From the sequence record PZ256263.1: a stretch of DNA of 64,000 bases; one strand, given 5' to 3'. Source of the DNA: a phage. Positions within the stretch are counted from its first letter, which is position 1. Each line of letters begins with the position of its first letter. The position numbers and the translations under genes were made by a program. Shown piece by piece: positions 2,627 to 62,626 of the stretch. The notes below the pieces were generated by a model. That model ran no database searches and had not been told where the DNA came from. It saw only the letters and a program-made list of their open reading frames with translations.

Positions 2627-3820
2627 ATGTTTCCAGTAACATTAGAAGATACTGAAGGTAATGTTTTAACGGTCAACCCTCCTTGTTATGGGTTCCTTCA
2701 GCTTCGCAACTATAACGGTGGCGTTGATGAAGATGATGACGAAGATGAATACTTCGACCCTAACATGTATGAGGCAACTCATGGGTGGAATATGCACGTT
2801 CGAGTGTGGCATGAAGAAGCTAACGTTCGTAGTGCTGATGGGGAAGAGTTCCTGTTGAGCCGAGAGATGGATATGTGTAAAATCAAGCATATCTGGAACT
2901 CCGGAACTCACATGAAGATGTTAGGTTTTAGACGTTGGCGTGATGAAAAACCTGTATCCGCAGCTTTAGGTTGGGGTGCTATTGATTACGAAGGCGAGCT
3001 TAAAAACAACATTGAACGTTGGAATGACAAAAACCCTGAACATCGAACCACACCTCGTGCTGTACTGGAAGCTATGGAAGCATTTGTGGACAAAGATCGT
3101 CCCTCCTGTTTACGCTGGCACGATAAAGGTTTTATGGGGGTAGCAACTGAAAATGTTCCTGCTGATCGTTGTCTATTCTATTTGATGTTAGATCGAACCT
3201 TCTATTGTGAAGATGAAGAGAGTCAAGTTGAAACCTTCCTCCACAAATGGTTGGTTGAAGGCTGGACAATCCTTCAGTCTTATGTTTACTCACGAATGGT
3301 TAGCACTTACACTAACCTCTTGGGTGAAACGAAAGCAACTCTGGTTGGTAATGATTGGGATGCTTGTATCTTCCCAGCGTCACTATTTACAGTCGGCATG
3401 GCTGATAAATACGCTGAAGCATTTCAAGTGCCTTGGCGTCAACAGTCGTATAGAGACGGGTGTGGTCACTTCCGTGATGAAGACTTTAAGTGGATTCATT
3501 ATGAGAACGATGAAACAGCAGAATTGCGAGTTAACAACTCAATGTTCTTGCCAGTGATGCACCCCGATCTAGTAAAAGATGGGTCAGAGATACTTAAAGG
3601 TGATAATCTTTTGGTTAACTTTACCCGTCGCGTGTCTAAAAATGAGAGAACAGCTAACAGGCTAATCTACGGCATTCGTGCCGAGGCTAAAGACCTGTTC
3701 AACATCTACAACATTATTCAGCGATTTAGTAGTGGAACTCTGGACCAAAGTTCGGAGTATTCAGTGATTCCATCCTCTGAGTGGGATGGTATTATGAGCG
3801 GATTATTTTTAGGAAAATAA
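2627..3820 (+). CDS. hypothetical protein, first gene of amidoligase/GATase cluster
   Basis: Track ORF 397 aa; tightly packed with downstream genes; no recognisable motif. Confidence 0.6.
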   Translation: MFPVTLEDTEGNVLTVNPPCYGFLQLRNYNGGVDEDDDEDEYFDPNMYEATHGWNMHVRVWHEEANVRSADGEEFLLSREMDMCKIKHIWNSGTHMKMLGFRRWRDEKPVSAALGWGAIDYEGELKNNIERWNDKNPEHRTTPRAVLEAMEAFVDKDRPSCLRWHDKGFMGVATENVPADRCLFYLMLDRTFYCEDEESQVETFLHKWLVEGWTILQSYVYSRMVSTYTNLLGETKATLVGNDWDACIFPASLFTVGMADKYAEAFQVPWRQQSYRDGCGHFRDEDFKWIHYENDETAELRVNNSMFLPVMHPDLVKDGSEILKGDNLLVNFTRRVSKNERTANRLIYGIRAEAKDLFNIYNIIQRFSSGTLDQSSEYSVIPSSEWDGIMSGLFLGK

Positions 3821-21745: not shown

Positions 21746-21754
21746 TAATGTATA
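21746..21754 (+). promoter_or_regulatory. TAATGTATA motif, candidate phage-sigma-dependent promoter
   Basis: Exact TAATGTATA 12 nt after phoH stop, about 24 nt upstream of AAGGAG and the ATG at 21791; a second degenerate copy TAATGTACA follows. Confidence 0.5.
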
Positions 21755-21790
21755 CTCCTTAATGTACACTGATATATTAAGGAGTTTTAA

Positions 21791-22105
21791 ATGGCAGACC
21801 ATGTAGGAAAGAGAGATTATGCACAAGAAAGACGTACCGCAATTGCCCGTGGTGAGACAGGCGTTGGGAGCAAGAGCGGAGATGCTCAGCGCCACCGTGC
21901 ACGTCGCATCGTTGAAAAGCGCGATGGAAAAGCTGCTGTCAGAGGTAAAGATGTTGGACACAAACGAGCTGTCAAGTCTGGAGGCTCTAATGCGTCAAGC
22001 AACTTACGTGTTGAATCAGTCAGCTCAAACCGTTCAAACGGCGGCAAAAGTGGTGATCGAGCTGGAAAAGCAGCTGGAGCACGCAAAGGAGCTTTAAGCT
22101 CATAA
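21791..22105 (+). CDS. basic Gly/Arg/Lys/Ser-rich low-complexity protein
   Basis: Track ORF 104 aa with strong SD AAGGAG; first codon positions G-rich and third positions A/T-rich, favouring this frame over the overlapping ORF 21819-22097. Confidence 0.45.
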   Translation: MADHVGKRDYAQERRTAIARGETGVGSKSGDAQRHRARRIVEKRDGKAAVRGKDVGHKRAVKSGGSNASSNLRVESVSSNRSNGGKSGDRAGKAAGARKGALSS

Positions 22106-30130: not shown

Positions 30131-31616
<1,486 letters not shown>

Positions 31617-33226: not shown

Positions 33227-33614
33227 GAAGACTCGCTGTAGTGGAATGTGGACTGAAGCTCGTTATAACTCTTTCATCAAGTCAGGGATTCGTTCTCTGA
33301 CTAGAAAGTGGAAGCCCATGTTTGATGCACTAGCAGACGCCAAGACAGAGCAGAAGATTAATCCAAAGACAGGAAGACTGGCAATGCACTTTAAGTGTGC
33401 CATGTGTGGTAATGACCACCCTGTAAAGGATATGGCTATTGACCATATAGAGCCTATAGTCCCTCTTGACCATGAAGCAACTTGGGATGAAATTATCTCT
33501 CGTGCTCTATGTGAGAAAGAAGGTTTTCAGGTTCTATGTAAAGACCCTTGTCATAAGATTAAAACAAAAGAAGAGAATGATGCAAGAAAACAATTCAAAA
33601 AAGGAAATGAGTGA
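33213..33614 (+). CDS. HNH endonuclease
   Basis: Track ORF 133 aa; CAMCGNDHPVKDMAIDHIEP ... CEKEGFQVLCKDPCHKIK. Confidence 0.55.
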   Translation: MAKSEKTRCSGMWTEARYNSFIKSGIRSLTRKWKPMFDALADAKTEQKINPKTGRLAMHFKCAMCGNDHPVKDMAIDHIEPIVPLDHEATWDEIISRALCEKEGFQVLCKDPCHKIKTKEENDARKQFKKGNE

Positions 33615-33834
33615 TGATCAAAAATCTACGCAACAAGTACTTCGCTTTCGCTATCGCAATTGGAGAGGCGAGATTGCTGACCGGTCCGTTATTCCACTCC
33701 GAACCTCCGTTGCTAGCTCCCGTTTTCATAACGGTGGCAAACCTTGTTGGATTATGACAGCGATTGATGTAGAGAAAGATGAGATTAGAGAGTTCAAGCT
33801 CTCAGATATTATTCAATATTATGATTTGATCTAG
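33607..33834 (+). CDS. small hypothetical protein (75 aa)
   Basis: Internal ATG of track ORF 33466, 8-nt overlap with HNH stop. Confidence 0.4.
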   Translation: MSDDQKSTQQVLRFRYRNWRGEIADRSVIPLRTSVASSRFHNGGKPCWIMTAIDVEKDEIREFKLSDIIQYYDLI

Positions 33835-33842
33835 GAGGGAAT

Positions 33843-33968
33843 ATGGTCTATGATCAAGATATTCTAGACGAATTGCTTAAAATGGCAAATCGCCTTACAG
33901 AGATTATCGAAGAAATAAAAGTCAGAGAAGAGTCTTACTTAGCAGCCGAGGAAAATTGGGATGTATGA
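33843..33968 (+). CDS. possible small protein (41 aa)
   Basis: ATG after GGAGGGA; below track cutoff. Confidence 0.25.
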   Translation: MVYDQDILDELLKMANRLTEIIEEIKVREESYLAAEENWDV

Positions 33969-38556: not shown

Positions 38557-38594
38557 AACGTCTCCTTTTATAAATAAAAATGTCCTACCCCCTA

Positions 38595-38603
38595 TATACA
38601 TTA
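38595..38603 (-). promoter_or_regulatory. TAATGTATA motif, candidate promoter for the large ejection-protein gene
   Basis: Minus strand reads ctaTAATGTATAtag, about 28 nt upstream of AGGAG and ATG 38556. Confidence 0.5.
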
Positions 38604-38623
38604 TAGAAGGCAGGACTTAGGTC

Positions 38624-44173: not shown

Positions 44174-45142
44174 TTACCAACTCCCTATTCTTATGCGAAG
44201 AGTTCCACTCCCATCATAAAAATCTATTCTATTACCATTCATCCACAACTGAGAACCACCTGTACCACCCATAACAAAATCACCACCAACAGTAAGTCTC
44301 CAGTTAGAACCCCACATAGAACCAGCAGTGATTTTATCCGCTGATAAGTTCTGAATCTGAGCATTGGAGATGGATACGTTATCAATCTGTGCCCATTGGA
44401 TTCTAGCGTTAGCTATCTGAGCTGTTGTGATATTGACGTTCTTTATATCAGCAAACTCCATCCTAGCCCTACCACCCTCAAACACAAAAGGTGTGTTACC
44501 AGAGCTGCCATCACCAACAATAAACTTGTTAGCTGTTACTTGGAATTGACTGTTTGTTCCATTGTTAGTTAACTTGACCCCAGCATACCTTCCGTTGACT
44601 GTAGAGTTAACACCCCACGTAGCTTCATACTCAGAGAGTTTCATATACTGAGAGAGGCTTCCGTTGATATTTTGTAGTTCTGTCTGAACAAGAGCAATCT
44701 CTTGACCTTGATCATTAACAATACCTTCTACTGTCTGAATCTTAGTTGTGTTGCCTTCGATGCTAGTCTTAAAACCAGATACAGTGCTTTCTAGTTTTAC
44801 AGGAGGTTGAACAGAGTTATCCCAAATGTCCTCAGTGGACAGATTCCCCATCTGGGTTTGGATATCTGCAATAGCTGTTTCTATCTCTGTAGTAATTCTA
44901 TTCTCAAGCTCATCAAATTGAAGATTCATTGCATTAAGAGCTTTAATACGAACATCAATCTCTTCGTGAATTTCATCTATAGCTTGGAACATTTGGTTAG
45001 TAGCTGTGCTAACTTTTTGTAATTCATCATACACTGCTACGTTATATGTTTCTGTGTCCTGTACATTATTGAGAAACCCAACGTTGTACGGGAGTGTGGT
45101 GTTGTTGCGACCAGTGTTCTTACGAAAACCACCTGCACCCAT
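44174..45142 (-). CDS. tail fibre / host-recognition-like protein
   Basis: Start moved to internal ATG (residue 23 of track ORF) because a terminator hairpin and GGAGGAA lie upstream; C-terminal repeats NVNITTAQIANARIQWAQIDNVSISNAQIQ. Confidence 0.55.
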   Translation of the reverse strand: MGAGGFRKNTGRNNTTLPYNVGFLNNVQDTETYNVAVYDELQKVSTATNQMFQAIDEIHEEIDVRIKALNAMNLQFDELENRITTEIETAIADIQTQMGNLSTEDIWDNSVQPPVKLESTVSGFKTSIEGNTTKIQTVEGIVNDQGQEIALVQTELQNINGSLSQYMKLSEYEATWGVNSTVNGRYAGVKLTNNGTNSQFQVTANKFIVGDGSSGNTPFVFEGGRARMEFADIKNVNITTAQIANARIQWAQIDNVSISNAQIQNLSADKITAGSMWGSNWRLTVGGDFVMGGTGGSQLWMNGNRIDFYDGSGTLRIRIGSW

Positions 45143-45150
45143 AAGTTCCT

Positions 45151-45180
45151 CCAAAACAATAAAAGGGGCACGAAGCCCCT
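45151..45180 (-). terminator. stem-loop terminator after the large Ig-domain tail protein gene
   Basis: Minus RNA aggggc-uucgu-gccccu followed by uuuuauuguuuu, 5 nt after the stop at 45186. Confidence 0.55.
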
Positions 45181-45185
45181 TGTTG

Positions 45186-48100
45186 TTATCTCCGCCCGCC
45201 AACAGCAAACTCTATCGTTAAACCATTGATAGCAGCATTACTGTTAACATCATTATCTATAACATTATAGAAAAGGTATGGATGGTTCAGTCTCACCGAG
45301 ACATGCCTGTCAACACCGATCGTATATGTTTTAGATGTGTGTGGGTGTCCATATTCATTTGAGAATTGACTACCACCAGCTTCAAATATGTAAGTACCTG
45401 AACCAGTTGTCTGAGGTCGGAACCTGTTAATATGCTTCTGATTCCACTCATTCGTCACATTATCAAAATCTATACCAGTCCTCTCCAACCTCATTTCCAG
45501 AGGTTTCTCTATAACAACATCGTTTAGCCTGTCATAGAAATAATCAAGAGCGCCTACATCCACCTGATAGAATCCCTTCAAGAATGAACCTACTATCGTA
45601 ACCCTCTGTCTAAAGTTTGTTGCATCCTTTCTCCAAACGAGTTCTTTAATAGATGGGTCATCCCAAGTGATTTCTTGGAAGTCAGACCAGATTGGACCTC
45701 TTTCTAAAACAGGAGGATCAACCAGACCAATACACTGAGCATATGGGATAGTACGGAAAGACCAAGTATCAAACTCATAATTCCATACAGCAGCTTTAGT
45801 ACAAGCGAAGCTTTCTTTTGGCTCCCCCGGACCTACATACAGAACCCAAACTTCTTTCTTATCCTGATGCAAGTGTACTCGAGTTGCTAGAGGGTTAACC
45901 AGACACACCTCGTTAATCAGCATGTTTTTGACACGGTTAGATGCAATTGACTTCTTGGTTGCACCATTATGTAAGATCACATCGTTCTGAGTAACTACGA
46001 AGTGACTACCTTCTACTTCAACCACACACTCAGGAGCAAGGATACCAGAGTCGTTAAAGAGTTTCTTGAACATTAGAGGTTGGTACGTGTTATTAGTCGG
46101 AGAACCAATATACGTTTCAAACTCTGTATAAACAAACAAGTAGTCTTTAAGAGGTAGGATATCAATCAAGCTACCATTAGAATCTGCTAAGTCGATGTAA
46201 CCAGCATACCCATTCTCTAGAGCCTGAGTCTGCCCTACGATGTTAGAAGCTAAGTCCGAAGACACAACTCGATCATAGGCAAAGTCATCCCACAGTGTAG
46301 GAGCCTTGTTCTCGTTGGCAAAGTTAGACCAACGAAGACGAAGAGGGTAGTTAGTGGTAACACCAGAAGCATTAGCCTCTCTCATATTCAGAGCAAAAAG
46401 ACGGTTGTTAAAAGATCTTACTCTCTCACATTTCCAGTTAAACTTCTTGACTGAAGGGTTTCCATCATTATCAACAACTGTTTGCTCACCCCACCCCGGA
46501 AGGTCTACAAAGTATTCTGATTCGAATTCTTTTACCTGAGGAGTTTCATAGTGAGTTGTAGCAACTGCACAGTTAGAGATAACAGCGTGATACCAAGGGT
46601 AGTCATCAAAAGCATCGTAATCCTTCTGAGTCATCTGACTGACAGTACATGTTACGTTAATCTCTCCTTTACGAAGAGCAACCAGTTTGATAGATTTACC
46701 AGTAACTGAGGTTGTAGAAACATAACCAGTTTTATCAACAGACCACTGATAAGAGTACTCACCTTCTGGAGAAGCTGTGGCTGTAATGACAATCTCTTCA
46801 CCAACATCAAGAGAAGCGCTGACAATATCTAAGGTTACAGATGACAGAGGGGTTGCCAGTAAAGAAGCTCTTGCAAAACCTTCAATGTCATTCACGTTAG
46901 AGTAATCGTAGAAGTTATTACCTTCGTACATCCCTGACGTATCAATACCAGATGTAGGCTCAGCAAAATAAACCGTCTCTTCACTTTCAGGAGGAGTTAC
47001 TACTTCTTCCTCTTGAGTTTCTACTGACTCTGACACAGGAGCGGCAAATGCCATAGCACTTGTTCTCATTGTCCTTCCAGCTAAATCCACACGTACAGTA
47101 CAGACAGCAACTCTGCTACCTTCTTCAGTGGTAGCTGTAATCTCAGTAAAACCAGCAAGTAGAGCGTTGATCGTCCCTTGTGTGCCAGTCCCTGATACTG
47201 TTGCAATATTTGGATTAGAAGAGGTCCAAGTAATATTTTGATTAGGGGCGTTAGCAGGAGAAAGGGTAGCAGTTAAGATATACTGAGAACCTCTACTCAC
47301 AGTAACATCTGACTGGCTTAAAGAAATGCTATCAATCTGAGGGATAGAAACAACCTCACAAGAAGCAGTCTTAGTTCCGTTATCAGCAGTGATTGTTACG
47401 TTACCTTCTCCATTCGCTGTAATGACGGCAGTTAAAGAGTTGGCATTAGGGGTTACGGATACGATAGAAGCGTTATTGCTGGACCAAGTTACAGGAGTTT
47501 TGCCAGTAACAGCCGTGAGAGTAGTAGTCCCTCCTTTACGAATTGTAACAGTGTCTTGACTCAAGAAGATGCCTGAATCACCATCAATGATATTAACAGC
47601 AATCTGAGCCACTACGGATTCATTGGCAGTAGAGATAGTTACTACAAGATTACCCTCTTTCTCAAAAGATGTTAGAGTAGCAAGTTTAGAGTCACTAGGG
47701 TCTACCGTAACACTTCCATAGGCCGAGTTACTAACCTCCCAAATAAGATCAGTATTGTTAGCATCAGCAGGGAGAAGAGAAACCTCTAGATTCTTGGTCT
47801 GATTGAAGTTCATTGAGATAGTTGATTCTTTAGGAACGATCTGAGAAACAACTGGATAAATCTTAATTGAGGCAGAAGCCTTCTTAGTGACTGTAGCAAC
47901 CTTACGGCTAATATCAGTCAAGCTTTCATCTGTCAGTTTATATAACTTCTTATCCGTACCTACAACAAGAAAGCTATTACCTGCGCTATAATAATCGAAA
48001 GGCATAGAAACGAAAGACAGAGGGGTTAAATCCTTATCTTCATCTACATAAGAAAGAGGGGCATTGCCCCCCGTCTTAAATACTCTCTGCTCAACAAATC

Positions 48101-48203
48101 GAGCATTTATAGCATTAGTGAAAGCATTAGGAGCTAAGTCTGTCGGAGCCTGATCAGCGATAACGCCTACAGCACCTAGTGACTTTATTGGATACAGCGC
48201 CAT
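45186..48203 (-). CDS. large tail protein with multiple bacterial Ig-like (BIG2-type) domains
   Basis: Track ORF 1005 aa; repeated Thr/Ser/Val-rich modules (VTISTANESVVAQIAV, VTITADNGTKTASCEVV, TEITATTEEGSRVAVCTV). Confidence 0.7.
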   Translation of the reverse strand: MALYPIKSLGAVGVIADQAPTDLAPNAFTNAINARFVEQRVFKTGGNAPLSYVDEDKDLTPLSFVSMPFDYYSAGNSFLVVGTDKKLYKLTDESLTDISRKVATVTKKASASIKIYPVVSQIVPKESTISMNFNQTKNLEVSLLPADANNTDLIWEVSNSAYGSVTVDPSDSKLATLTSFEKEGNLVVTISTANESVVAQIAVNIIDGDSGIFLSQDTVTIRKGGTTTLTAVTGKTPVTWSSNNASIVSVTPNANSLTAVITANGEGNVTITADNGTKTASCEVVSIPQIDSISLSQSDVTVSRGSQYILTATLSPANAPNQNITWTSSNPNIATVSGTGTQGTINALLAGFTEITATTEEGSRVAVCTVRVDLAGRTMRTSAMAFAAPVSESVETQEEEVVTPPESEETVYFAEPTSGIDTSGMYEGNNFYDYSNVNDIEGFARASLLATPLSSVTLDIVSASLDVGEEIVITATASPEGEYSYQWSVDKTGYVSTTSVTGKSIKLVALRKGEINVTCTVSQMTQKDYDAFDDYPWYHAVISNCAVATTHYETPQVKEFESEYFVDLPGWGEQTVVDNDGNPSVKKFNWKCERVRSFNNRLFALNMREANASGVTTNYPLRLRWSNFANENKAPTLWDDFAYDRVVSSDLASNIVGQTQALENGYAGYIDLADSNGSLIDILPLKDYLFVYTEFETYIGSPTNNTYQPLMFKKLFNDSGILAPECVVEVEGSHFVVTQNDVILHNGATKKSIASNRVKNMLINEVCLVNPLATRVHLHQDKKEVWVLYVGPGEPKESFACTKAAVWNYEFDTWSFRTIPYAQCIGLVDPPVLERGPIWSDFQEITWDDPSIKELVWRKDATNFRQRVTIVGSFLKGFYQVDVGALDYFYDRLNDVVIEKPLEMRLERTGIDFDNVTNEWNQKHINRFRPQTTGSGTYIFEAGGSQFSNEYGHPHTSKTYTIGVDRHVSVRLNHPYLFYNVIDNDVNSNAAINGLTIEFAVGGRR

Positions 48204-48212
48204 AATTCCTCC

Positions 48213-49016
48213 TTAGCTAATACGTCTCCAAATGTGAGCTGCTCTGAATGGTGGCAAAGTGTTAATAGGTTGACGAGAGATATCATCACGACCAAGACTT
48301 ACACTACCAGAGATTGTATGAGTGTGAGTATCATTATCAGTTCTCTGACTATATCCACCACCCGGACTATACCAGTTTGGCGAGCTGTTATGACCACTAG
48401 CATCTCCACGACCAAATACCATATTGTGACTGTGAGTATTACTGGATAGAGAGAAGCTGGAGCCATTAACTGTCATCAAAGGTACGTTCTCAGTTCGAAT
48501 AGTATTGAAGACACGACCACCAGTACCACCTGCTTGGAACTCAACTCTTTGAGCGTTAGGAACAGAACCATCAGGGTTTACTACACCAGTACCCATGATA
48601 ACACCAGTCACTTTAGCCCAAGAGCCAAACCCTAAGGAGATTGAATCACCGGGGTTAATGTCTTCTTCAGTGATGTAATAAGAACCGATTCGATAGAGCT
48701 TATTCTCCATCCAGTTCTTCATGAACGCTTCCATCTGGCCTTTAGTAACAACATCCTTGTCACCAGTTCCCGGAGTAACATTCTTGATCATAAGACCACC
48801 AACATCCATTGCATCACCAGTAAACTTGAGCTTCTCTGACATGATCTTAAAGGTGTCAGAATCTATATCAACTGGCTCTGTAACATTGGGGAATGTGTTC
48901 TGTAACGTTTGTTTAATGAGGCGGATTTGAGCCGCCCCTTCGTAGATGTAATCCCTGTCTCTAGGATAGAGTGGGTTTAAGTCGGTAATAACTACCGCAT
49001 TAGTTTCGATAGCCAA
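48213..49016 (-). CDS. tail fibre-like protein
   Basis: Track ORF 267 aa; IKNVTPGTGDKDVVTKGQM resembles the fibre N-terminal DAVN-type motif; Gly/Ser-rich C-terminus. Confidence 0.55.
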   Translation of the reverse strand: MAIETNAVVITDLNPLYPRDRDYIYEGAAQIRLIKQTLQNTFPNVTEPVDIDSDTFKIMSEKLKFTGDAMDVGGLMIKNVTPGTGDKDVVTKGQMEAFMKNWMENKLYRIGSYYITEEDINPGDSISLGFGSWAKVTGVIMGTGVVNPDGSVPNAQRVEFQAGGTGGRVFNTIRTENVPLMTVNGSSFSLSSNTHSHNMVFGRGDASGHNSSPNWYSPGGGYSQRTDNDTHTHTISGSVSLGRDDISRQPINTLPPFRAAHIWRRIS

Positions 49017-49028
49017 AAGGCACCTCCA

Positions 49029-49520
49029 TTAATATTTACCTTCGGTGTAAAGATTAGCTTCTGCAACTCTTCTATTATGAAGACCCTGACTTCTCTGCTT
49101 CTCTCCCTTGACCGTTATTTTATCCCAACGAAGAAATTCGGAATAAACATCCCCCTTAACATCTCCATTGATTACCTTCCTTAACTTAGATGTGCTCAAA
49201 GCCCCACTGCCAACATTGAAGTTGAAAGAAGTGAGTGCATCAAACTCATGAACTAGTAAAGGAACCTTTATGTTCTTCTGAGTAGCACGAACAGAGTCTT
49301 GTGTGTCTCTATCTAGCAGAGCTAGACAATCCTCTATAGAATACGTTAATCCTTGTCTAACCGGATAACCATTCATATCGCGCGTAGCCCCTACACATAT
49401 AGTCCAGATACCTGCGGAATCTTTATAAGCCTTTGTTCTCATACCCTCATGCTTCATGATGAATTCCATTCCAGCTGGGCTTAAGTTTAGTTGTACAGGT
49501 GGCAATGCGACGTTATCCAT
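49029..49520 (-). CDS. endolysin, GH24 lysozyme (T4 e-like)
   Basis: Track ORF 163 aa; MKHEGMRTKAYKDSAGIWTICVGAT matches the catalytic EG...Y.D..G..TIG.G motif. Confidence 0.85.
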   Translation of the reverse strand: MDNVALPPVQLNLSPAGMEFIMKHEGMRTKAYKDSAGIWTICVGATRDMNGYPVRQGLTYSIEDCLALLDRDTQDSVRATQKNIKVPLLVHEFDALTSFNFNVGSGALSTSKLRKVINGDVKGDVYSEFLRWDKITVKGEKQRSQGLHNRRVAEANLYTEGKY

Positions 49521-49549
49521 TTCTAACCTCCTTTTGTAGTCCCTTTAAA

Positions 49550-49768
49550 TTAAGGTAGTATCTTTCTCAGAGCGTTAGATTCAGCATCAGGGCAAATAAC
49601 AACTAAGTTATTTTGAATTGTTCTCTGCTTGCATTGAGAGCTAAGCTTCTCTACTGGAGCAGGGACAGTTACTAATGGATGAACTGCGCCTACAGGAACT
49701 GCGGTGGATACCACAACACCTGCGCCTAAACATATTAAACCATATGCAGCTTGTTTCATCATTTTCAT
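49550..49768 (-). CDS. small secreted/membrane protein immediately upstream of endolysin
   Basis: Track ORF 72 aa; N-terminal hydrophobic segment; GGAGA upstream. Confidence 0.45.
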   Translation of the reverse strand: MKMMKQAAYGLICLGAGVVVSTAVPVGAVHPLVTVPAPVEKLSSQCKQRTIQNNLVVICPDAESNALRKILP

Positions 49769-49840
49769 TTGAGTGTCTCCTATATATTAACCTCTTGGGA
49801 TATATTAGTTTCATTACTTACTAAGGGTACTCACTACTAA

Positions 49841-49856
49841 AGCCCCCGAAGGGGCT
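49841..49856 (-). promoter_or_regulatory. intercistronic stem-loop with UUCG tetraloop
   Basis: Minus RNA agcccc-uucg-ggggcu, 5 nt after stop of the 49861 gene; no U-run. Confidence 0.4.
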
Positions 49857-49860
49857 TATA

Positions 49861-52059
49861 TTACCTCTCTGCTAGTTTTGCTTCTAGAACTTCAATACGC
49901 TTCAGAAGGTCTTGAACAACCTGCATAGTATCAAGGAGCATAGGAGCTGAGTCTAGCTCTTTCTGTTCTTGCTCTACACCATCATTGTCGTGGAACCTAC
50001 GAGTCTTAACATAAAGAGGTTCTACCTTTTCTGCTTGCTGTGCAATAATACCACGACGAGTTCTTCCTTGCTCATCATTGTTATACACAAATGATTTGAA
50101 ATCCAAACCTTTAATAGCTTTGATAGCTTTCTCAGGGGAAATATCTTGGATATCATGTTTTAATCTTTCATCTGACACGGGATTCAGAGCAAGAGTGTAT
50201 GTTCCAGTAGAGCCGGGTTGCCAAGTATAATATAAAATCTCATTCCTGTTTGGTCGAAGTGTTAGACGGCAACCGTATTTGTTGTCTTCATCACCTGCAA
50301 CGTGCCAGCAAGAATCGGCAAAAGTTCCGGCGTCGTTGTGAATCATGCCAACATGAGTGGTGGTCTTGTATCCCCCACTAGATGATTGAGAAGCACTTAG
50401 TATGGAATTGAAGGAGAAGTTAGACCCTAGCCCTTGGTTGTCCATGGAGAATGTTCCTTTCCTAGCTCCTGTTTCACTCCAAGACATCAAAGTGCCAAAT
50501 CTAGAAACATACCTATCAGAATTCAGTGTACCAGAATCGTCGAAAGCTAACTGCTTGGTAACTCCTTTAGTTTTATTGTAGACGTCAATGATTCCATAGT
50601 AAGCTCCGTTGATGTAGGCATCAGTTTTGAGAGTAGTAGAAGCTTCTACTTCTGAACCGATTTTATACTCAGAGACAACTGACCCACTAGAAACTTTCGT
50701 TCCATTGGAAGGTCGTGTGGTGTCACTATTAATAACAGACCAAGAAGTATTAGCAGCAACAAATCCACCATGAGCACGAATAGTCCAAACCCCCACAAAG
50801 TTTCTCGGTATAATGTTGTCAGAGATACTATAACGACCATAAACTGGGTTGGACCGGCTTGCGTCGAAGACTAGAGTATTATTACGTCCATCAACTGCAC
50901 CGGACCCCGGAGGTATAGTGTCCCCTCCACCAGCCGGATACAAACTGTTATCCGTATAGAATGAATCTTGCACAGACGTCCCGAATATCCCTGCATAAGT
51001 CCCGGCTGATACACCAGCGACCTTACCTTTGATATTGGGTGCAGCAGAATCATAGATAACACCATTGTTAGATGATGTACCACCATCACCGCGACCAAAT
51101 AACTCCTTAATAGAACCAACCTGAACCCCGTTGCGGTCTGGAACGCGGAAAGTAGTAGAACCGTCACCAGTAGAGTACTGTCCACGTTTTTGGGCATCAC
51201 TAAGCCATTCAGAATCTGAGATAGGGGATAACAGCTGTGCATAAGCCCAGAGATCTGGGTACTCTGAACGATTAAGAAGCTGACCGTCTGACGTTACCTC
51301 AAAAGCTGGAATAAAAGCTCGACTGTCACGTAAATGGAAATCACCAATACCAAAGTTAGAGATACCGCTCATCGTAGGACCACCAGAGCCACCACCACTG
51401 TTTCGAAGCTGTCTCAAAGTAACCGCATCATAATCACCAACTGCATCAGGGACAGTTACTGGTTGAGTGAAAGTAACTTTCTGTGTGAGCTGTTTGATAT
51501 CAGAGTTAATCCCTGTACGAGTAACACCTACCGTACGACCTTTAGAGTCTTTAACATAAGAACCAATTGCAGCAAAAGGCAAATCCTCAATCTCAGGACG
51601 GTAACGTTTAGAATAAACTGGATACTTAGTTTCTACCCCAGAGTCATTCTGGTCAACAACCTGAAGACGACCAGCAGAATGAATCTCTACACCTTGAACT
51701 GAAGAGGCATAACTACCAATCTTGATTGAGTTATCAGTAGTAACTTTCATCATATCAACTGATTCTACACCATTAGCTCCAGTAGAACGGAATGGGGTAT
51801 CATTAACAACCCAAGGGTCTTCTCGGAACAGCGCACCAGACATAATAGGTTGAATCGAATCCAGCACAAAATCTTTAGATGCACCCTCTGTTTTAGTTTG
51901 ATAGGTAGCAGCTGCGTCGGTTTTCTGTAAATATTTTCCGGTGAGGTTAATAGCTCCAGCCTGTCCATCTACAGTAGAAACCCCAACAACAGCCGCGTCT
52001 CTGGTTACAACCACATGAGGCATCATTATACCAGATTTGGGCATTAATTCTCTAGACAT
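49861..52059 (-). CDS. tail fibre/tailspike with C-terminal intramolecular chaperone (peptidase S74-like) domain
   Basis: Track ORF 732 aa; C-terminal SDERLKHDIQDISPEKAIKAIKGLDFKSFVYN matches the auto-cleaving chaperone motif. Confidence 0.75.
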   Translation of the reverse strand: MSRELMPKSGIMMPHVVVTRDAAVVGVSTVDGQAGAINLTGKYLQKTDAAATYQTKTEGASKDFVLDSIQPIMSGALFREDPWVVNDTPFRSTGANGVESVDMMKVTTDNSIKIGSYASSVQGVEIHSAGRLQVVDQNDSGVETKYPVYSKRYRPEIEDLPFAAIGSYVKDSKGRTVGVTRTGINSDIKQLTQKVTFTQPVTVPDAVGDYDAVTLRQLRNSGGGSGGPTMSGISNFGIGDFHLRDSRAFIPAFEVTSDGQLLNRSEYPDLWAYAQLLSPISDSEWLSDAQKRGQYSTGDGSTTFRVPDRNGVQVGSIKELFGRGDGGTSSNNGVIYDSAAPNIKGKVAGVSAGTYAGIFGTSVQDSFYTDNSLYPAGGGDTIPPGSGAVDGRNNTLVFDASRSNPVYGRYSISDNIIPRNFVGVWTIRAHGGFVAANTSWSVINSDTTRPSNGTKVSSGSVVSEYKIGSEVEASTTLKTDAYINGAYYGIIDVYNKTKGVTKQLAFDDSGTLNSDRYVSRFGTLMSWSETGARKGTFSMDNQGLGSNFSFNSILSASQSSSGGYKTTTHVGMIHNDAGTFADSCWHVAGDEDNKYGCRLTLRPNRNEILYYTWQPGSTGTYTLALNPVSDERLKHDIQDISPEKAIKAIKGLDFKSFVYNNDEQGRTRRGIIAQQAEKVEPLYVKTRRFHDNDGVEQEQKELDSAPMLLDTMQVVQDLLKRIEVLEAKLAER

Positions 52060-52073
52060 TTAAATCTCCTTAA

Positions 52074-52090
52074 AGCTCCCCGAAGGGAGC
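52074..52090 (-). promoter_or_regulatory. intercistronic stem-loop with UUCG tetraloop
   Basis: Minus RNA gcuccc-uucg-gggagc between the two tail fibre genes, just upstream of GGAGA. Confidence 0.4.
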
Positions 52091-52099
52091 ATTGTTAAA

Positions 52100-54376
52100 T
52101 TACTCAGAAGGCATTTCAACACGAACTGAAATAAAAGCATCACTCGGGATATCAATAGGATCACCGTCAGAAAAACCTTCTATCTCATTTCTAGCAAAAA
52201 CCGGAGAGGTTGGATGGGTTCTGTGATAGGTTTTAACTAAAATAGAACCATCTTCTTTAATCTCATAGTCCAGCCAAACCCTAGGTTGTTTGTTGCGGTC
52301 AGTAGGGATTTCAAAGCCGCCGTCAATGCCTCCCCATTTTGCATCTGCGTTTAAGCCAAGGCAACCGGTAATCAAGTACTCACCAACACCTTGCCGAATG
52401 ACATTAACCCCCTCAGATTCCTCGTTCGTCTCATATCGACCGTCGGAGTAAATATGAACTACCGGAGATGCCGCTTTGATAAATCCGTTTACATCAACAG
52501 TGGTGTTTTTGTTTGTAAGACAATGGACATATTTTATTGTTCCGTCTGCAATCTTTATTGCGTAAGATATGCGACCGTATTGTGAGGCTTCGCCACCAGA
52601 CCCTGCATATGACACACCGTGGGCAATCCAGAAGTTAGTATCCTCTGGCTGCATATACCAGTAGCAGTTAAACAAGTCTAAAGTAAACAGGCCGTTCCCG
52701 GAGGCATGTTGGACACGATCCCCAGTACCACCTACGCCTGAATTTGCTGGGGTGTTACTTAGCGCTCCAATATTGAACCTTGCACCAGCAGCATCTCCAG
52801 CCCCTGTCCCACCATTAGCAATAGGTACATTATCCAGAGTAGAAACACTTCCCAACCCTAGATTAGAACGAGCACTAGCAGCGTCTTTAGCTCCAGTGCC
52901 TCCTTGTGTGACAGACAGTGCTGTAGTGAGTCCCGTGAGGGATGTTATATCAGAGTTTGTACCAGAAGCGGCAGCACCTAAAATTGATCTGGAGATGTTC
53001 ACATTACCAGTAATCTCATCAGGAGCTTGGTTATTTACAGTAACAACATAAGGTTTCTGAGCCTGTACAGACCCATTGTACTGAGAGTCTTTATCAGAAT
53101 CTGGTGCTCTTATTGCCTCCCCTCCAGTCCAATCAGGAAGTCGAATGTTGATAAAATTAGTAGAATCTGCATCGGTAATACCATCTGCCAATTTACCCCA
53201 AGAGAAGTATTGTTTAGCCCCTGCTTGCCATTCAGTTTCAGAAACAACAGGAAGTTGTCCACTGACAAGGGATGGGCCTAAATCTGAAGCAGACTCTTTA
53301 GACACTAGACGACCATCGGCTGGAAGAACGCCCGGATAGGAGATATTCTTTGTTGGGTCATAAGGGAACATTACCATCTCACCAAGATATAGAGAAGGGT
53401 TTCCTGTTGGAATGGTAATGTCAATATTACCACTGGAGTCTGGAGAACGGGAATTAACAGTAAGAATTCTACCTTCAGTTTTAACAGGAGTTAATGTTTT
53501 GTTAGCAGCAACAGTATAAAATTCATACTTAGTAGCTTCCCAAACTAAGACCTTCTCACCAACTTGGCGATACTGAGCGTCAGCATCAGCTTCTGCTTTA
53601 GATTGATATGTCTTGGTGGTTTTATCAAACTTGTCATTAATCTCTTGACGACTGTACTGAGCAACGTTCAGAACATTCCCTAAACCTACCGTCTCTTTGT
53701 TAAGTGTTAGAGCAACCTCTCCATCAAGAGCTGGACCGCCGTTAATAGAGACAGAACGAACAGATGGGATTAAATTAGCAATGTTATCTAGAGTAGTTTT
53801 GTGGACGGTATTGTCATCTTTGTCAACATAGAAACCTAAATCACCTAGCTCTGGAACACCTGTAGGTGCTGTATCCAAATCCTTAACAGAACCATCTTTT
53901 CCGGGATCACCTTCTGGAATACCTAAAGAGATTACACCAGTGTTAGGATTAAAAGAGCCAGTAGCCGGAGTTCCCGGAGGGAGAGTTGTTACATCAACAG
54001 ACATTCCTAACAGAACATCAAGCTGATTCTGGACTTCAATAAGTTTTTGGTTAATGAGAGCAACGGCATTATTAGCATCCGATACTGCTGCGTTGGTTTG
54101 GGCAATCAGAGTCATCAAACGAGCATCTTGATCCTTAAAATCCTGCTTAAGATCTTCAATATCCTGCTTCATCAGAACACCCTGTTGATATAGACGTTCT
54201 ACTTCAGCGATTAAATCATCAATTGTACCAAACTTAGATTCTGCTAGCAGTGCCCAATATTTGGAGTCAGCTGCATATTCTGCTGCTTGCTTGTAAGCTC
54301 CGATAGAGCCTTCAGTAGCACCAAACTGCCCAACGTTATTCACTGCATCAGGTGCTTGGTTATTATAAACGATCAT
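52100..54376 (-). CDS. tail fibre protein with GGTGA-type repeats
   Basis: Track ORF 758 aa; QGGTGAKDAASARSNLGLG and ANGGTGAGDAAGARFNIGAL repeats. Confidence 0.7.
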   Translation of the reverse strand: MIVYNNQAPDAVNNVGQFGATEGSIGAYKQAAEYAADSKYWALLAESKFGTIDDLIAEVERLYQQGVLMKQDIEDLKQDFKDQDARLMTLIAQTNAAVSDANNAVALINQKLIEVQNQLDVLLGMSVDVTTLPPGTPATGSFNPNTGVISLGIPEGDPGKDGSVKDLDTAPTGVPELGDLGFYVDKDDNTVHKTTLDNIANLIPSVRSVSINGGPALDGEVALTLNKETVGLGNVLNVAQYSRQEINDKFDKTTKTYQSKAEADADAQYRQVGEKVLVWEATKYEFYTVAANKTLTPVKTEGRILTVNSRSPDSSGNIDITIPTGNPSLYLGEMVMFPYDPTKNISYPGVLPADGRLVSKESASDLGPSLVSGQLPVVSETEWQAGAKQYFSWGKLADGITDADSTNFINIRLPDWTGGEAIRAPDSDKDSQYNGSVQAQKPYVVTVNNQAPDEITGNVNISRSILGAAASGTNSDITSLTGLTTALSVTQGGTGAKDAASARSNLGLGSVSTLDNVPIANGGTGAGDAAGARFNIGALSNTPANSGVGGTGDRVQHASGNGLFTLDLFNCYWYMQPEDTNFWIAHGVSYAGSGGEASQYGRISYAIKIADGTIKYVHCLTNKNTTVDVNGFIKAASPVVHIYSDGRYETNEESEGVNVIRQGVGEYLITGCLGLNADAKWGGIDGGFEIPTDRNKQPRVWLDYEIKEDGSILVKTYHRTHPTSPVFARNEIEGFSDGDPIDIPSDAFISVRVEMPSE

Positions 54377-54385
54377 ATTATCTCC

Positions 54386-55138
54386 TTATACACGAGAAGT
54401 ACGAATACCATAAATATCAGGCAAGCTGCTCTGAAGTCGAGTCATGTTATTCGGAATTGCGATAGGTGAACCTGAGTACTCTTGTTTCTTATTCTGTTCT
54501 ACCATTTCATCAAGGATAGCTTTTCCTAATGCTGACCATTTCTGAACACCATTATCATCTTGAACAAAGAGACAAGCATGACGTAGGGTGAAATACAGAA
54601 GAAGTTCTGGTGCTATAGTAAGAATAGTACTAGTATCTGTATCTTCATGGAATTCCGGTGGGTCTGCATAATAGCTAAGAATCACTGAGTTTTCTGCTGG
54701 AATCAAAGGGCTTCCATCATCAGGGTAGTACGGAGTATCTGCTTCGATGCTAGGGTAGAAAATGAAACGACTACCGAAACGAGCAAAGTTGACAGGTTGG
54801 TTATTCCAGTGAGATGGGTTAATTGTTCCATGCTGTCTACGATAGCTAATCTCTTCAGGAGAGGTTACTTGGAAGATTGTGCCATCTTTGGCTCTCATCA
54901 TCCATTGAGCTTCTAAGTAATCAGGAGGAATGTAAGCTACTCCATCTTTAATATCTAAATATACTTCTTTTTCCAGAGGAGGAATACGTAAGTTACGATA
55001 AATCTCTTTCTCTGCAAAGTTAATAAAGTTTGGAATTTGATTAACAAATTCGTCATCGTCCCTATCTGCCCAGAGGGCCACGGCCTTCTTTAGCCACCCA
55101 TAGGTATTGATGGGGTATTGAACATCTGGCATTGCCAT
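54386..55138 (-). CDS. virion protein (putative head-tail adaptor or tail tubular protein)
   Basis: Track ORF 250 aa; first gene after the capsid terminator, with own promoter motif and GGAGG. Confidence 0.5.
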   Translation of the reverse strand: MAMPDVQYPINTYGWLKKAVALWADRDDDEFVNQIPNFINFAEKEIYRNLRIPPLEKEVYLDIKDGVAYIPPDYLEAQWMMRAKDGTIFQVTSPEEISYRRQHGTINPSHWNNQPVNFARFGSRFIFYPSIEADTPYYPDDGSPLIPAENSVILSYYADPPEFHEDTDTSTILTIAPELLLYFTLRHACLFVQDDNGVQKWSALGKAILDEMVEQNKKQEYSGSPIAIPNNMTRLQSSLPDIYGIRTSRV

Positions 55139-55171
55139 AGGTTGTCCTCCTTGTTATATGTAGACAAAGAA

Positions 55172-55180
55172 TATACATTA
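55172..55180 (-). promoter_or_regulatory. TAATGTATA motif, candidate promoter downstream of the capsid terminator
   Basis: Minus strand reads gtgtgTAATGTATAtt, about 20 nt upstream of AGGAGG and ATG 55138. Confidence 0.5.
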
Positions 55181-55200
55181 CACACTGGCTTGTATAGGTC

Positions 55201-55233
55201 TTAAAACGAAAAAACCCCGCCCGAAGGCAGGGT
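55201..55233 (-). terminator. rho-independent terminator after the capsid/Ig-like coding region
   Basis: Minus RNA stem acccugcc/ggcggggu with UUCG loop followed by uuuuuucguuuu, a few nt after the Ig-frame stop. Confidence 0.65.
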
Positions 55234-55239
55234 CTAGTT

Positions 55240-55752
55240 TTAAGCAGGTGTTACACCAGTAAAAGTGCATGTTGCATTGATGGATGGGTCAGCTGTCAAA
55301 CTTGCTTGAACAGTAACTTCGCCACTTGCAGCAGCATCTAAGGTTAACGCACCAGCGGCGCTTACTGTACCAGCTTCTGTAGGGGTTACAACAAACGTGT
55401 AATCCGCAGCAGTAGAATTAGTTACAGTAAACATGGTAGTGAAGTTAGTGGAAGAACCACCAGTTTTACCCGTAATTGGACCCTTAGCTACAATAGTAGG
55501 AGCAGGAGCAACAATTTCAGAAATGGTTGCTGTACCAGAAACACCTTCTAAAGTTGCAGTAATGGATACATCAGTGGATTGAGACGCACTCGGAGCAGTA
55601 TACAAACCAGACTGAGTGATAGAACCACCTCCTGTCACTGACCAAGTAAAGCCAGTTGTTTCGGTAGAACCATCACTTTTCTCCGCGCTTGCAGTGAACT
55701 GCCGAGTAGCCCCTGTCTCTAGACTTGCTAAAGACGCAGGGCTAACAGTCAC
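55240..55752 (-). CDS. Ig-like (BIG2-type) domain, probably a -1 frameshift extension of the major capsid protein
   Basis: Track ORF 170 aa begins at GTG with no SD; its frame stays open 30 codons upstream into the capsid gene 3' end; Thr/Ser/Ala-rich with BIG2-like VSPASLASLETGATRQFTA. Confidence 0.6.
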   Translation of the reverse strand: MTVSPASLASLETGATRQFTASAEKSDGSTETTGFTWSVTGGGSITQSGLYTAPSASQSTDVSITATLEGVSGTATISEIVAPAPTIVAKGPITGKTGGSSTNFTTMFTVTNSTAADYTFVVTPTEAGTVSAAGALTLDAAASGEVTVQASLTADPSINATCTFTGVTPA

Positions 55753-55763
55753 ACTGTCTACTG

Positions 55764-56822
55764 TTACGCCGCCACCTTTCCCGCGGCAGTGAACAGAACG
55801 CCGGAAGCGTACGGGTTGCGGTGACGCAGACCAACTTCCATTTCAATCATCCACTTCTCGTAAGAACCGTCTTTAGCCAGTTCAGTGCGTTTCGGAGCAC
55901 GCAGAACCATCTGAGTCCAGTCAGCGCTACGGAAGAAGTAAACTGCATCGGTAGGCATCCAACGGTTAACGATGATTTTGTAGCTCTGGCCCAGCGGGTC
56001 AGTGATGCTGTTAACTTCGTAGATGAACTGCTTGGTGTTCTCAAAGATACGCTTACGTGAACCCTGAGTATTTTCTTGCAGACCAGCGAAGATCTTAGCA
56101 TGAGCCGGGTTAATCATGATGATATCTGCTTCAGAACCAGCGGTATACAGTTGCAGAGTCATATCAAAGATATCAGCTTCGTCGAAACCAATGTTAGTGG
56201 TCGGGTTAGAAGCGTTCTGTGCAACTTTAACAGTTACTGCACCAGTATCCGGGTCAGCAGGACCATTCTTGGTCTTGTCAACAACGCCACCAGCCAGACC
56301 ACCGTGAGCACACAGGAACTGGAATGCACCAGTCTTACGAGCTGCATGGGTGTCATTCAGACCAACAACAGCAGGATCAGTTGCAGAGTTAGTCAGGTAC
56401 TGGTCAGCCAGAACGTCGGTACGAGCCTGACCGGACAGAAGGATTTTCTCGAGGTCACGCTTGATCTCTTTACCTTTCTTCTCCAGCTGATACATCAGTT
56501 CACGACCACGACCGTAGTTAGCGGTGGTGTTAGCAGTATCAGAAACACGAACAACCTTACGCAGAATCTGAGTAACGTTAGATTTGATAACAGTCGGTTT
56601 CATTTCGCCGTCTTCAGCACGAGAGCCTTCGACGTGTGCGTTATTACCGTCAACGCTTGCCAGTGCATCGGTCTGCCAGCTAAAGATAGTCTGGTTAATA
56701 GACTCTTTACCGGTCATAGATACGAACGGGGTATCCTGAGGGGACAGAACAGAAATCCAGTTAGCAAAAGAAAGTTTTTTACCATTCTGGTCATACGATA
56801 CAAATAAAGTTGGATTAGCCAT
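55764..56822 (-). CDS. major capsid protein
   Basis: Track ORF 352 aa; directly downstream of scaffold-like gene; strong terminator after it. Confidence 0.7.
   Translation of the reverse strand: MANPTLFVSYDQNGKKLSFANWISVLSPQDTPFVSMTGKESINQTIFSWQTDALASVDGNNAHVEGSRAEDGEMKPTVIKSNVTQILRKVVRVSDTANTTANYGRGRELMYQLEKKGKEIKRDLEKILLSGQARTDVLADQYLTNSATDPAVVGLNDTHAARKTGAFQFLCAHGGLAGGVVDKTKNGPADPDTGAVTVKVAQNASNPTTNIGFDEADIFDMTLQLYTAGSEADIIMINPAHAKIFAGLQENTQGSRKRIFENTKQFIYEVNSITDPLGQSYKIIVNRWMPTDAVYFFRSADWTQMVLRAPKRTELAKDGSYEKWMIEMEVGLRHRNPYASGVLFTAAGKVAA
55776..55782 (-). other. candidate -1 ribosomal frameshift heptamer G GGA AAG
   Basis: X XXY YYZ heptamer in capsid frame (...GCG GGA AAG GTG GCG GCG TAA), 3 codons before the stop; -1 frame continues GGG AAA GGT GGC ... 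into the Ig-like ORF. Confidence 0.5.
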
Positions 56823-60454: not shown

Positions 60455-60484
60455 TAAATAAAAGAAGGGAGGACAAACCTCCCC
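60455..60484 (-). terminator. stem-loop with U-rich tail between terminase and portal genes
   Basis: Minus RNA gggagg-uuugu-ccuccc followed by cuucuuuuauuu. Confidence 0.4.
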
Positions 60485-60490
60485 CTTACT

Positions 60491-62032: not shown

Positions 62033-62101
62033 ACTTCCTCCAGTTTAAAAATAGAAAAGGGAAAGTCCCTTCGTCAAAGAACCTCCCCTTCTTTCCTTTA
62101 C

Positions 62102-62600: not shown

Positions 62601-62626
62601 AACACAAAAAGCCTCCCAACGGAGGC
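62601..62626 (-). terminator. rho-independent terminator upstream of the terminase genes
   Basis: Minus RNA gccucc-guug-ggaggc followed by uuuuuguguu. Confidence 0.5.

Follow-up and report, generated by a model that had tools for sequence, protein, structure and literature searches.

Late gene order and four intercistronic hairpins

The DNA analyzed here, called the window below, is a stretch of 64,000 nucleotides (nt) from a phage (sequence record PZ256263.1), and the elements in question are four short RNA hairpins, designated J1 to J4, that lie between genes of its late module. By its sequence, the window can be assigned to a Kuravirus, a phiEco32-like podophage of the coliphage type. The region from 45000 to 56000 shows 99% identity to Escherichia phage MN03 and about 95% identity to phiEco32, both of which are Kuraviruses (Gordonclarkvirinae), prolate podophages of ~77 kb. 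The plus strand encodes the early and middle genes (1-33757), and the late genes, for the virion and for lysis, are on the minus strand (33935-64000). In mRNA order, the part of the late module considered here starts with the genes for the major head protein and its Ig-domain extension, followed by J4, a gatekeeper/virion structural protein, and a tail fiber of 758 amino acids. J3 separates the latter from a second tail fiber of 732 amino acids, and after J2 come a holin, an endolysin, and a tail protein. The series ends with a 1005-amino-acid virion protein, J1, and a tail needle/fiber. The spacing between the other late genes is ~9 to 29 nt, and most late genes are ~9 to 12 nt apart, with no such hairpin in between.

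The four hairpins had been proposed in a first-pass annotation, and all of them are present on the minus (mRNA) strand, offset by no more than 1 to 2 nt from the positions given there. J4 (55212-55235, minus strand) folds as AGACCCUGCC-UUCG-GGCGGGGUUU with a free energy of −16.7 kcal/mol, begins 4 nt past the stop codon of the Ig-domain/capsid-extension gene, and is followed by UUUCGUUUU. J3 (52075-52090, minus strand) is GCUCCC-UUCG-GGGAGC (−10.8 kcal/mol) and lies between the two tail-fiber genes, 9 nt past the upstream stop codon. Its 3′ flank, UUUAAGGAG, comprises UUU (52072-52074), the Shine-Dalgarno sequence AAGGAG (52066-52071), 6 nt, and the AUG at 52059, so that only 3 nt separate the end of J3 from AAGGAG. 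J2 (49840-49857, minus strand) is AAGCCCC-UUCG-GGGGCUU (−12.1 kcal/mol), begins 3 nt past the stop codon of the 732-amino-acid tail-fiber gene, and is followed by UAGUAGUG, with UAGUAGU directly after the stem. J1 (45163-45181, minus strand) is AAGGGGC-UUCGU-GCCCCUU (−12.2 kcal/mol) and lies between the stop codon of the 1005-amino-acid virion protein gene (45186) and the AUG of the tail-needle/fiber gene (45142). It is followed by UUAUUGUUUU, the Shine-Dalgarno sequence GGAGG (45148-45152), five further nucleotides, and the AUG, the distance from the end of J1 to GGAGG being 10 nt. The flanks of J2 and J3 are AU-rich and single-stranded.

All four elements are G/C-rich stem-loops on the mRNA strand, with free energies of −10.8 to −16.7 kcal/mol, and all begin at the end of a gene, 3 to 9 nt after a stop codon. 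The G/C-rich stems and UUCG or UUCGU loops of the first-pass annotation were borne out, and the stem length, given there as 6 to 8 base pairs (bp), is corrected to 6 to 10 bp. In J2, J3, and J4 the loop is closed by a C-G pair, giving C(UUCG)G. J1 has a UUCGU pentaloop in the window, and its counterpart in Suseptimavirus and Nieuwekanaalvirus relatives is C(UUCG)G.

Occurrence of the hairpins relative to chance

Comparison of folding energy with shuffled controls had been suggested as a check on the hairpins, which were set against shuffles both in number and in folding; in number they are in excess. The criterion for counting a hairpin was a UUCG or UUCGU loop on a stem of 5 or more pairs, of which 4 or more were G-C, and the control consisted of 300 dinucleotide shuffles. 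The window holds six such hairpins, four intergenic and two inside plus-strand genes, versus 0.11 ± 0.32 (maximum, 2) in the shuffles. Local-segment folding gave z-scores of −2.4 for J1, −2.5 for J2, −2.1 for J3, and −4.6 (−4.55) for J4, values that are bounded in how negative they can become because dinucleotide shuffling leaves short G-run/C-run hairpins partly intact. Within the late module, eight gaps are 40 nt or longer; all but one of these contain a stable hairpin, and in four of those seven the loop is UUCG or UUCGU. The eight gaps are the seven of 40 to 101 nt in the open reading frame map plus the J1 gap (45143-45185), which is masked in that map by an upstream TTG start.

The only sequence common to J1 to J4 is the CC-UUCG-GG core, and no direct-repeat family joins them. 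Because nothing is shared beyond that core, the four are regarded as independent hairpins and not as copies of one element.

The two counted hairpins that are not intergenic both lie on the plus strand inside early/middle-gene coding sequence. One is CGGCA-UUCG-UGCCG at 3670-3683, and the other is AGUCAGGGA-UUCGU-UCUCUGACU at 33280-33302, with a free energy of −11.9 kcal/mol.

Conservation and covariation among related phages

The junctions were compared across 43 related loci, taken from GenBank genomes of Kuravirus, Suseptimavirus, and Nieuwekanaalvirus, from IMG/VR and metagenome contigs, and from the distant phages 7-11, GAP52, and LAh_6, with orthologous junctions anchored on the N terminus of the downstream protein. 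The same junctions bear hairpins in ~30 related genomes, with differing stems and sometimes differing loops. The J1 stem occurs as GGGGC/GCCCC, GGGAGC/GCUCCC, or GGGGAGG/CCUCCCC, with a UUCGU, UUCG (in many relatives), or CUUGU loop. J2 variants include AAGCCCC/GGGGCUU, CCCCGC/GCGGGG, AACCCUC/GAGGGUU, and AAGGCCC-UGUUUG-GGGCCUU, and in two genomes the J2 site is occupied by an unrelated long (11-bp) hairpin instead. At J3 the variants are GCUCCC/GGGAGC, GCCCUC/GAGGGC, GCCCUCU-CUUC-AGAGGGC, and GGCCCCC-UUUAUU-GGGGGUC, together with CCCCUCUC-GAAA-GGGAGGGG in phage Paul. J4 likewise has several stems among relatives. In a formal pair count of the J4 alignment, 92% of the cells were paired and 4 pairs were changed on both sides; none of 500 shuffles reached these values, and slid registers were all far worse. 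This formal counting was limited to J4, and the comparison of J1 to J3 relies on the predicted fold of each variant; MAFFT put the variant loops of J2 and J3 out of register.

Over the same 43 loci, the sense strand had 86 G/C-rich UUCG hairpins and the antisense strand 0, a count that shows consistency rather than 86 independent events, as many of the 86 are orthologous copies. The compensatory stem changes and the strict strand bias show selection on RNA structure, and on this comparative evidence all four hairpins are structures selected at the RNA level. The UUCG loop itself is not required, given that orthologues carry GAAA, CUUC, CUUGU, UUUAUU, or UGUUUG loops. Since the loop is replaceable, stability and structure are what is selected, and not recognition of the UUCG sequence.

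A nearly matching hairpin, AAGGGGC-UUCG-GCCCCUU followed by U2-3 and AGGAGG, is found in distant taxa (L020, 2310-2327; L021, 2153-2172; L022, 3666-3683). It follows a gene annotated as "DNA injection protein" in Salmonella phage 7-11, Cronobacter phage GAP52, and Aeromonas phage LAh_6. A hairpin of the AAGGGGC-UUCG-GCCCCUU type is also present in L039, a metagenome contig of 90 kb. As judged from these sequences, the hairpin design recurs well beyond Kuravirus.

J1 and J4 as predicted intrinsic terminators

J1 and J4 have the sequence features of canonical Rho-independent (intrinsic) terminators. A U-tract was scored as about 5 or more U within the 8 nt directly 3′ of the stem. J1 is followed by UUAUUGUUUU (45153-45162, minus strand) and J4 by UUUUUUCGUUUU (55203-55214, minus strand), and in each case 6 of the first 8 nt past the G/C core are U. 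Both are picked up by a simple terminator consensus scan. Their T-scores, 4.36 for J1 and 4.34 for J4, fall in the range of 4.3 to 4.4 along with those of the terminators at 62611, 60465, and 62055 described below; these scores, based on the d'Aubenton-Carafa discriminant and RNA/DNA nearest-neighbor values, serve for ranking only and not as thresholds. In GenBank, the record of phage Paul has terminators annotated at J1 and J4, and that of vB_EcoP_WFI101126 has them at J1, J2, and J4. Together with the list published for phage SU10, these Kuravirus annotations are at orthologous positions and have near-identical sequences. They come from prediction software (FindTerm, ARNold, and the like) and do not represent mapped 3′ ends. 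The view of the first-pass annotation that the two hairpins with U-runs are terminators is thus upheld for this pair.

The exact J4 sequence is included in the terminator list of SU10, in Table S2, as "aactagaccctgccttcgggcggggttttttcgtttt" (PMC4281155). The same table gives a late promoter, gtgtgTAATGTATAttc, after the J4-equivalent terminator, and has this promoter as "gtgtgtaatgtatattc" between CDS10 and CDS11 (PMC4281155). In the window, the corresponding position 3′ of J4 is taken by the late gp36-type promoter P13 (55172-55202, minus strand), AAGACC-N16-UAAUGUAUA.

The interval downstream of J4 also varies in gene content. In relatives L010, L015, L018, L024, and L026-L028, an HNH homing-endonuclease gene is inserted 3′ of the J4 terminator and just 5′ of the gatekeeper gene, and the window is without this insertion between the Ig-domain and gatekeeper genes.

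J2 and J3 and their short U tails

J2 and J3 have shorter tails, with 3 to 4 U of 8 for J2 and 3 of 8 for J3, and T-scores of 2.5 to 2.8. The first-pass annotation had U-runs following only two of the four hairpins. That distinction holds for the long U-runs of J1 and J4, but J2 and J3 are not tail-less, for 3 to 4 U directly after their stems are kept in every Kuravirus-like variant, whatever the stem. The same annotation had the remaining two hairpins just upstream of Shine-Dalgarno sequences, which is correct for J3 but not for J2, located ~70 nt from the Shine-Dalgarno sequence of the holin gene; moreover, J1 also stands directly before one. No annotation of J3 was found in the annotated relatives examined.

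A functional terminator of comparable design is known from T7. The element recorded as "E. coli transcription terminator TE" (V01146, position 7588) is GGCUCACC-UUCG-GGUGGGCC followed by UUUCUGCG. Like J2 and J3, TE has a G/C-rich stem, here of 8 bp, with C(UUCG)G, and is read by the host RNA polymerase. It is placed 7 nt past the stop codon of gene 1.3 and ~20 nt before the next gene. Its tail, as in J2 and J3, starts with just UUU, and with 4 U of 8 and a T-score of 3.07, it is not more U-rich than theirs. TE differs from J2 and J3 in that it closes an early transcription unit driven by sigma-70, belongs to a phage of an unrelated family, and has a longer and stronger stem (−14.2 versus about −9.6 to −12 kcal/mol). 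The function of TE was proven experimentally, whereas that of J2 and J3 is predicted. Given the conserved U3-4 tail and scores like those of the functional T7 TE, a weak terminator is at least as likely as a processing element for J2 and J3. By this analogy, they are best read as leaky terminators and/or 3′-protective hairpins.

A promoter-like motif between J2 and the holin gene

Directly abutting the 3′ side of J2 and upstream of the holin gene is a two-part promoter-like motif (49808-49841, minus strand), consisting of UUUAGUAGU, a 16-nt variable spacer, and UAAUGAAAC. Its form is UUUAGNAGU-N16-UAAUGAA, or as a consensus, UUUAG-N-AGU, 16 nt, and (G/C)UAAUGAA. A comparison of 18 unique variants shows two conserved blocks at an invariant spacing, with a spacer whose sequence varies freely. 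The proven late promoters P13 and P26 (AAGACC-N16-TAATGTATA) have the same spacing. The AATG core matches the bases at −14 to −11 that are contacted by gp36, the phage sigma factor (PMC12276001). Three late promoters are listed for SU10, and the J2-adjacent motif is not among them (PMC4281155). From its sequence, the motif is probably a weak gp36-type promoter for the holin-endolysin cassette, and transcription would then start near 49801.

Predicted terminator-promoter pairs in the late region

Other late elements are of the same class as J1 and J4 but have different loops. The hairpin at 62611-62626 (minus strand), GCCUCC-GUUG-GGAGGC, is followed by UUUUUGUG and then by a late promoter on the same strand, UAAUGUAGA, which is a promoter in the SU10 list. 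At 60465-60485 (minus strand), the terminator GGGGGAGG-UUUGU-CCUCCCUU is followed by CUUUUAUUU and is present in the SU10 terminator list. The element at 62055-62092 (minus strand) is a hairpin of 17 bp that has GACG as its loop and precedes CUAUUUUU.

The late promoter P26 (38557-38623, minus strand) has its −10 element at the apex of a perfect 15-bp hairpin. This hairpin (38582-38616, minus strand), GUCCUGCCUUCUAUA-AUGUA-UAUAGGGGGUAGGAC, has a free energy of −21.3 kcal/mol and is followed by AUUUUUAUUU. Owing to the overlap, read-through RNA would form a strong terminator, and RNA started at the promoter, without the 5′ arm, would escape it.

A layout of terminator and then promoter recurs, in the 62611 hairpin with its promoter, in J4 with P13, in J2 with the promoter-like motif, and in the hairpin overlapping P26. 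The late region reads as a series of terminator-promoter pairs at 62.6, 55.2, 49.8, and 38.6 kb, with J3 and J1 as internal hairpins before Shine-Dalgarno sequences.

Proposed role in late transcription

We consider it likely that the four elements are hairpins of the Rho-independent-terminator type, of graded strength, in the late virion/lysis units. Transcription of these units would be by the E. coli RNA polymerase together with gp36, the sigma factor of the phage, and each hairpin would fold in the nascent RNA a few nucleotides past a stop codon. The C(UUCG)G tetraloop would allow a short 6- to 10-bp stem to fold fast and to be very stable in the exit channel. With its long U-tract, J4 would release the majority of polymerases once they have passed the highly expressed capsid genes, and transcription would start again from P13 at a level of its own. 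J1, whose U-tract is also long, would likewise release most polymerases before the tail-needle block. J2 and J3, with tails of U3-4, would most likely act as pause sites or leaky terminators, each lowering transcript abundance by a step. A hairpin at an RNA 3′ end, or one left by downstream endonucleolytic cleavage, would in addition shield the upstream message from 3′-to-5′ exonucleases. The relative termination efficiencies and the effects on RNA stability in this scheme are those that we infer for the hairpins described above.

That such hairpins would set the stoichiometry of capsid, fiber, and tail proteins, as the first-pass annotation suggested, is plausible by analogy but standard, leaky phage terminators, T7 Tphi among them, being textbook cases of this logic. 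Stable UUCG hairpins have been textbook examples of terminators and 3′ protectors setting expression ratios since the work on T4 and T7. Tphi lies between capsid gene 10 and gene 11 of T7 and, like J4, is a terminator right after the most abundant structural gene. It differs in acting on T7 RNA polymerase, in having a 13-bp G-U-rich stem with a 6-nt loop, and in having no promoter directly after it, unlike J4 with P13. Tphi has been described as "tuned to be inefficient" after gene 10, such that upstream genes are expressed more (PMC9157156).

Several observations weigh against a terminator function for all four hairpins. J2 and J3 fail the simple terminator consensus scan, and the z-scores of J1 to J3 are modest (−2.1 to −2.5). 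The conserved U after J2 belong to the invariant promoter-like block, and those after J3 fall in the spacer before the Shine-Dalgarno sequence; the conservation of these U therefore need not reflect termination. J3 is missing from two contigs at 52% identity, and for that reason is not essential to this genome architecture. Lastly, no transcript 3′-end or read-through data for any Kuravirus were found in the reachable literature.

Alternative explanations

The short U3 tails of J2 and J3 and their failure in the terminator scan could instead mean that these two hairpins, and perhaps all four, act only post-transcriptionally, as 3′-exonuclease barriers or processing boundaries that would stabilize the cistrons upstream after RNase E cleavage, with no release of polymerase. 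High stability, conserved structure, and AU-rich single-stranded flanks would fit such a role, and Tuerk et al. in 1988 reportedly tied the intercistronic CUUCGG hairpins of T4 to several processes, including RNA stability. Nevertheless, the 3 to 4 U after the stem persist over four different J3 stems and five J2 stems, and T7 TE, which is of the same design, does terminate E. coli RNA polymerase. We regard an exclusively post-transcriptional role as unlikely, and a post-transcriptional role and termination are not mutually exclusive.

A variation on the leaky-terminator reading is that J2 and J3 are regulated read-through points and not fixed leaks, at which termination is modulated by a phage-modified polymerase or by a ribosome stopping 3 to 9 nt upstream. 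The RNA exit channel of the core enzyme can admit the N terminus of gp79 (PMC12276001). We think this improbable; if true, J2 and the adjacent promoter-like motif would form an insulated module timing holin and endolysin expression. General antitermination by gp79 was considered separately and is unlikely, as RNA polymerase with gp36 and gp79 still yields products ending at rrnB T1 in vitro (PMC12276001).

The position of J3, which ends 3 nt before AAGGAG, and of J1, 10 nt before GGAGG, brings up translational insulation, in which the hairpins would keep the ribosome-binding site unpaired or uncouple neighboring cistrons. The same layout of hairpin, U2-3, and AGGAGG in the distant phages 7-11, GAP52, and LAh_6 would be in keeping with this. 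However, partition-function folding indicated that the unpaired probability from the Shine-Dalgarno sequence to the AUG barely shifts upon deletion of the hairpin or scrambling of its 5′ arm, from 0.62 intact to 0.53 to 0.55 for J3 and from 0.45 intact to 0.41 to 0.48 for J1. Most late genes, moreover, are ~9 to 12 nt apart and do without such a hairpin. An insulator role for J1 and J3 is accordingly very doubtful.

It is highly improbable that the hairpins act at the DNA level or are mobile, as repeated palindromes or recombination linkers flanking swappable tail-fiber modules. J2 and J3 do flank a tail-fiber gene with a mosaic 3′ end among relatives, and homology between relatives resumes ~10 nt or less upstream of the hairpins, but breakpoints in short intergenic spacers are expected anyway. 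The four sites have no shared flanks outside the core, the strand bias is absolute (86 versus 0), and the compensatory stem changes indicate RNA structure. A repeated or mobile intergenic palindrome, REP-like or T4 PeSL-like, was also considered and was rejected, the copies sharing no flanks or sequence beyond the core.

RNase III cleavage had been offered in the first-pass annotation as a check, but the proposal that the hairpins are RNase III sites cutting the polycistronic late mRNA into units is implausible. Its one recommendation is the analogy with the early and late RNase III sites of T7, and no supporting feature was found. The enzyme requires a double-stranded RNA of roughly 20 bp, or about two turns of the helix, and the stems here are too short at only 6 to 10 bp with loops of 4 to 5 nt. 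An Rfam scan of the whole window at gathering thresholds returned no family match.

Relation to known hairpins and significance

Knowledge of C(UUCG)G hairpins, both in the intercistronic regions of phages and in terminators of the E. coli type, goes back to the late 1980s. T4 is said to have intercistronic C(UUCG)G hairpins of the UNCG class of extra-stable tetraloops, which would share with J2 to J4 the same loop and closing pair, the location between coliphage cistrons, and the recurrence in one genome. T4 differs in belonging to another phage family and in using other polymerase specificity factors. Literature searches gave nothing specific on UUCG in terminators and nothing useful on CUUCGG hairpins and mRNA stability. 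The kind of element is already known and the phage group already studied; close relatives have terminators annotated at three of the four sites, and one of these, J4, is in a published list. What seems not to have been described before, as far as the records and papers examined go, is limited to J3 and to the observation that the hairpins share a UUCG loop.

The gain is mainly one of annotation, a consistent map of the Kuravirus late units with attenuator hairpins at 52.08 and 45.17 kb. One unannotated hairpin (J3) and a probable lysis-cassette promoter are added to what was available. The map may be of use in the engineering of phages that are therapeutic candidates, where short C(UUCG)G terminators with graded U-tracts could serve as compact, tunable parts.

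Other RNA and promoter features of the window

A CUGCCGC/GUGGCGG hairpin at the end of the major head gene (55769-55789, minus strand) has the slippery heptamer GGGAAAG in its loop. It marks the −1 frameshift, already known from phiEco32, SU10, and Paul, by which the capsid protein is fused to the Ig-like domain. At the convergent junction of the middle (plus-strand) and late (minus-strand) modules (33757-33935), no strong bidirectional hairpin terminator was found; SU10 lists a terminator at the equivalent place (position 30143 of the SU10 genome). A tRNA scan of the whole window found none.

Two tandem TAATGTA promoter motifs are present among the plus-strand genes, at 21746-21790. The second motif is within the 5′ arm of a 13-bp hairpin (−14.2 kcal/mol), and the 3′ arm of this hairpin holds AAGGAG, the Shine-Dalgarno sequence for the gene that begins at 21791. 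In RNA started at the upstream promoter this AAGGAG could be sequestered, which would not be possible in RNA started at the second.

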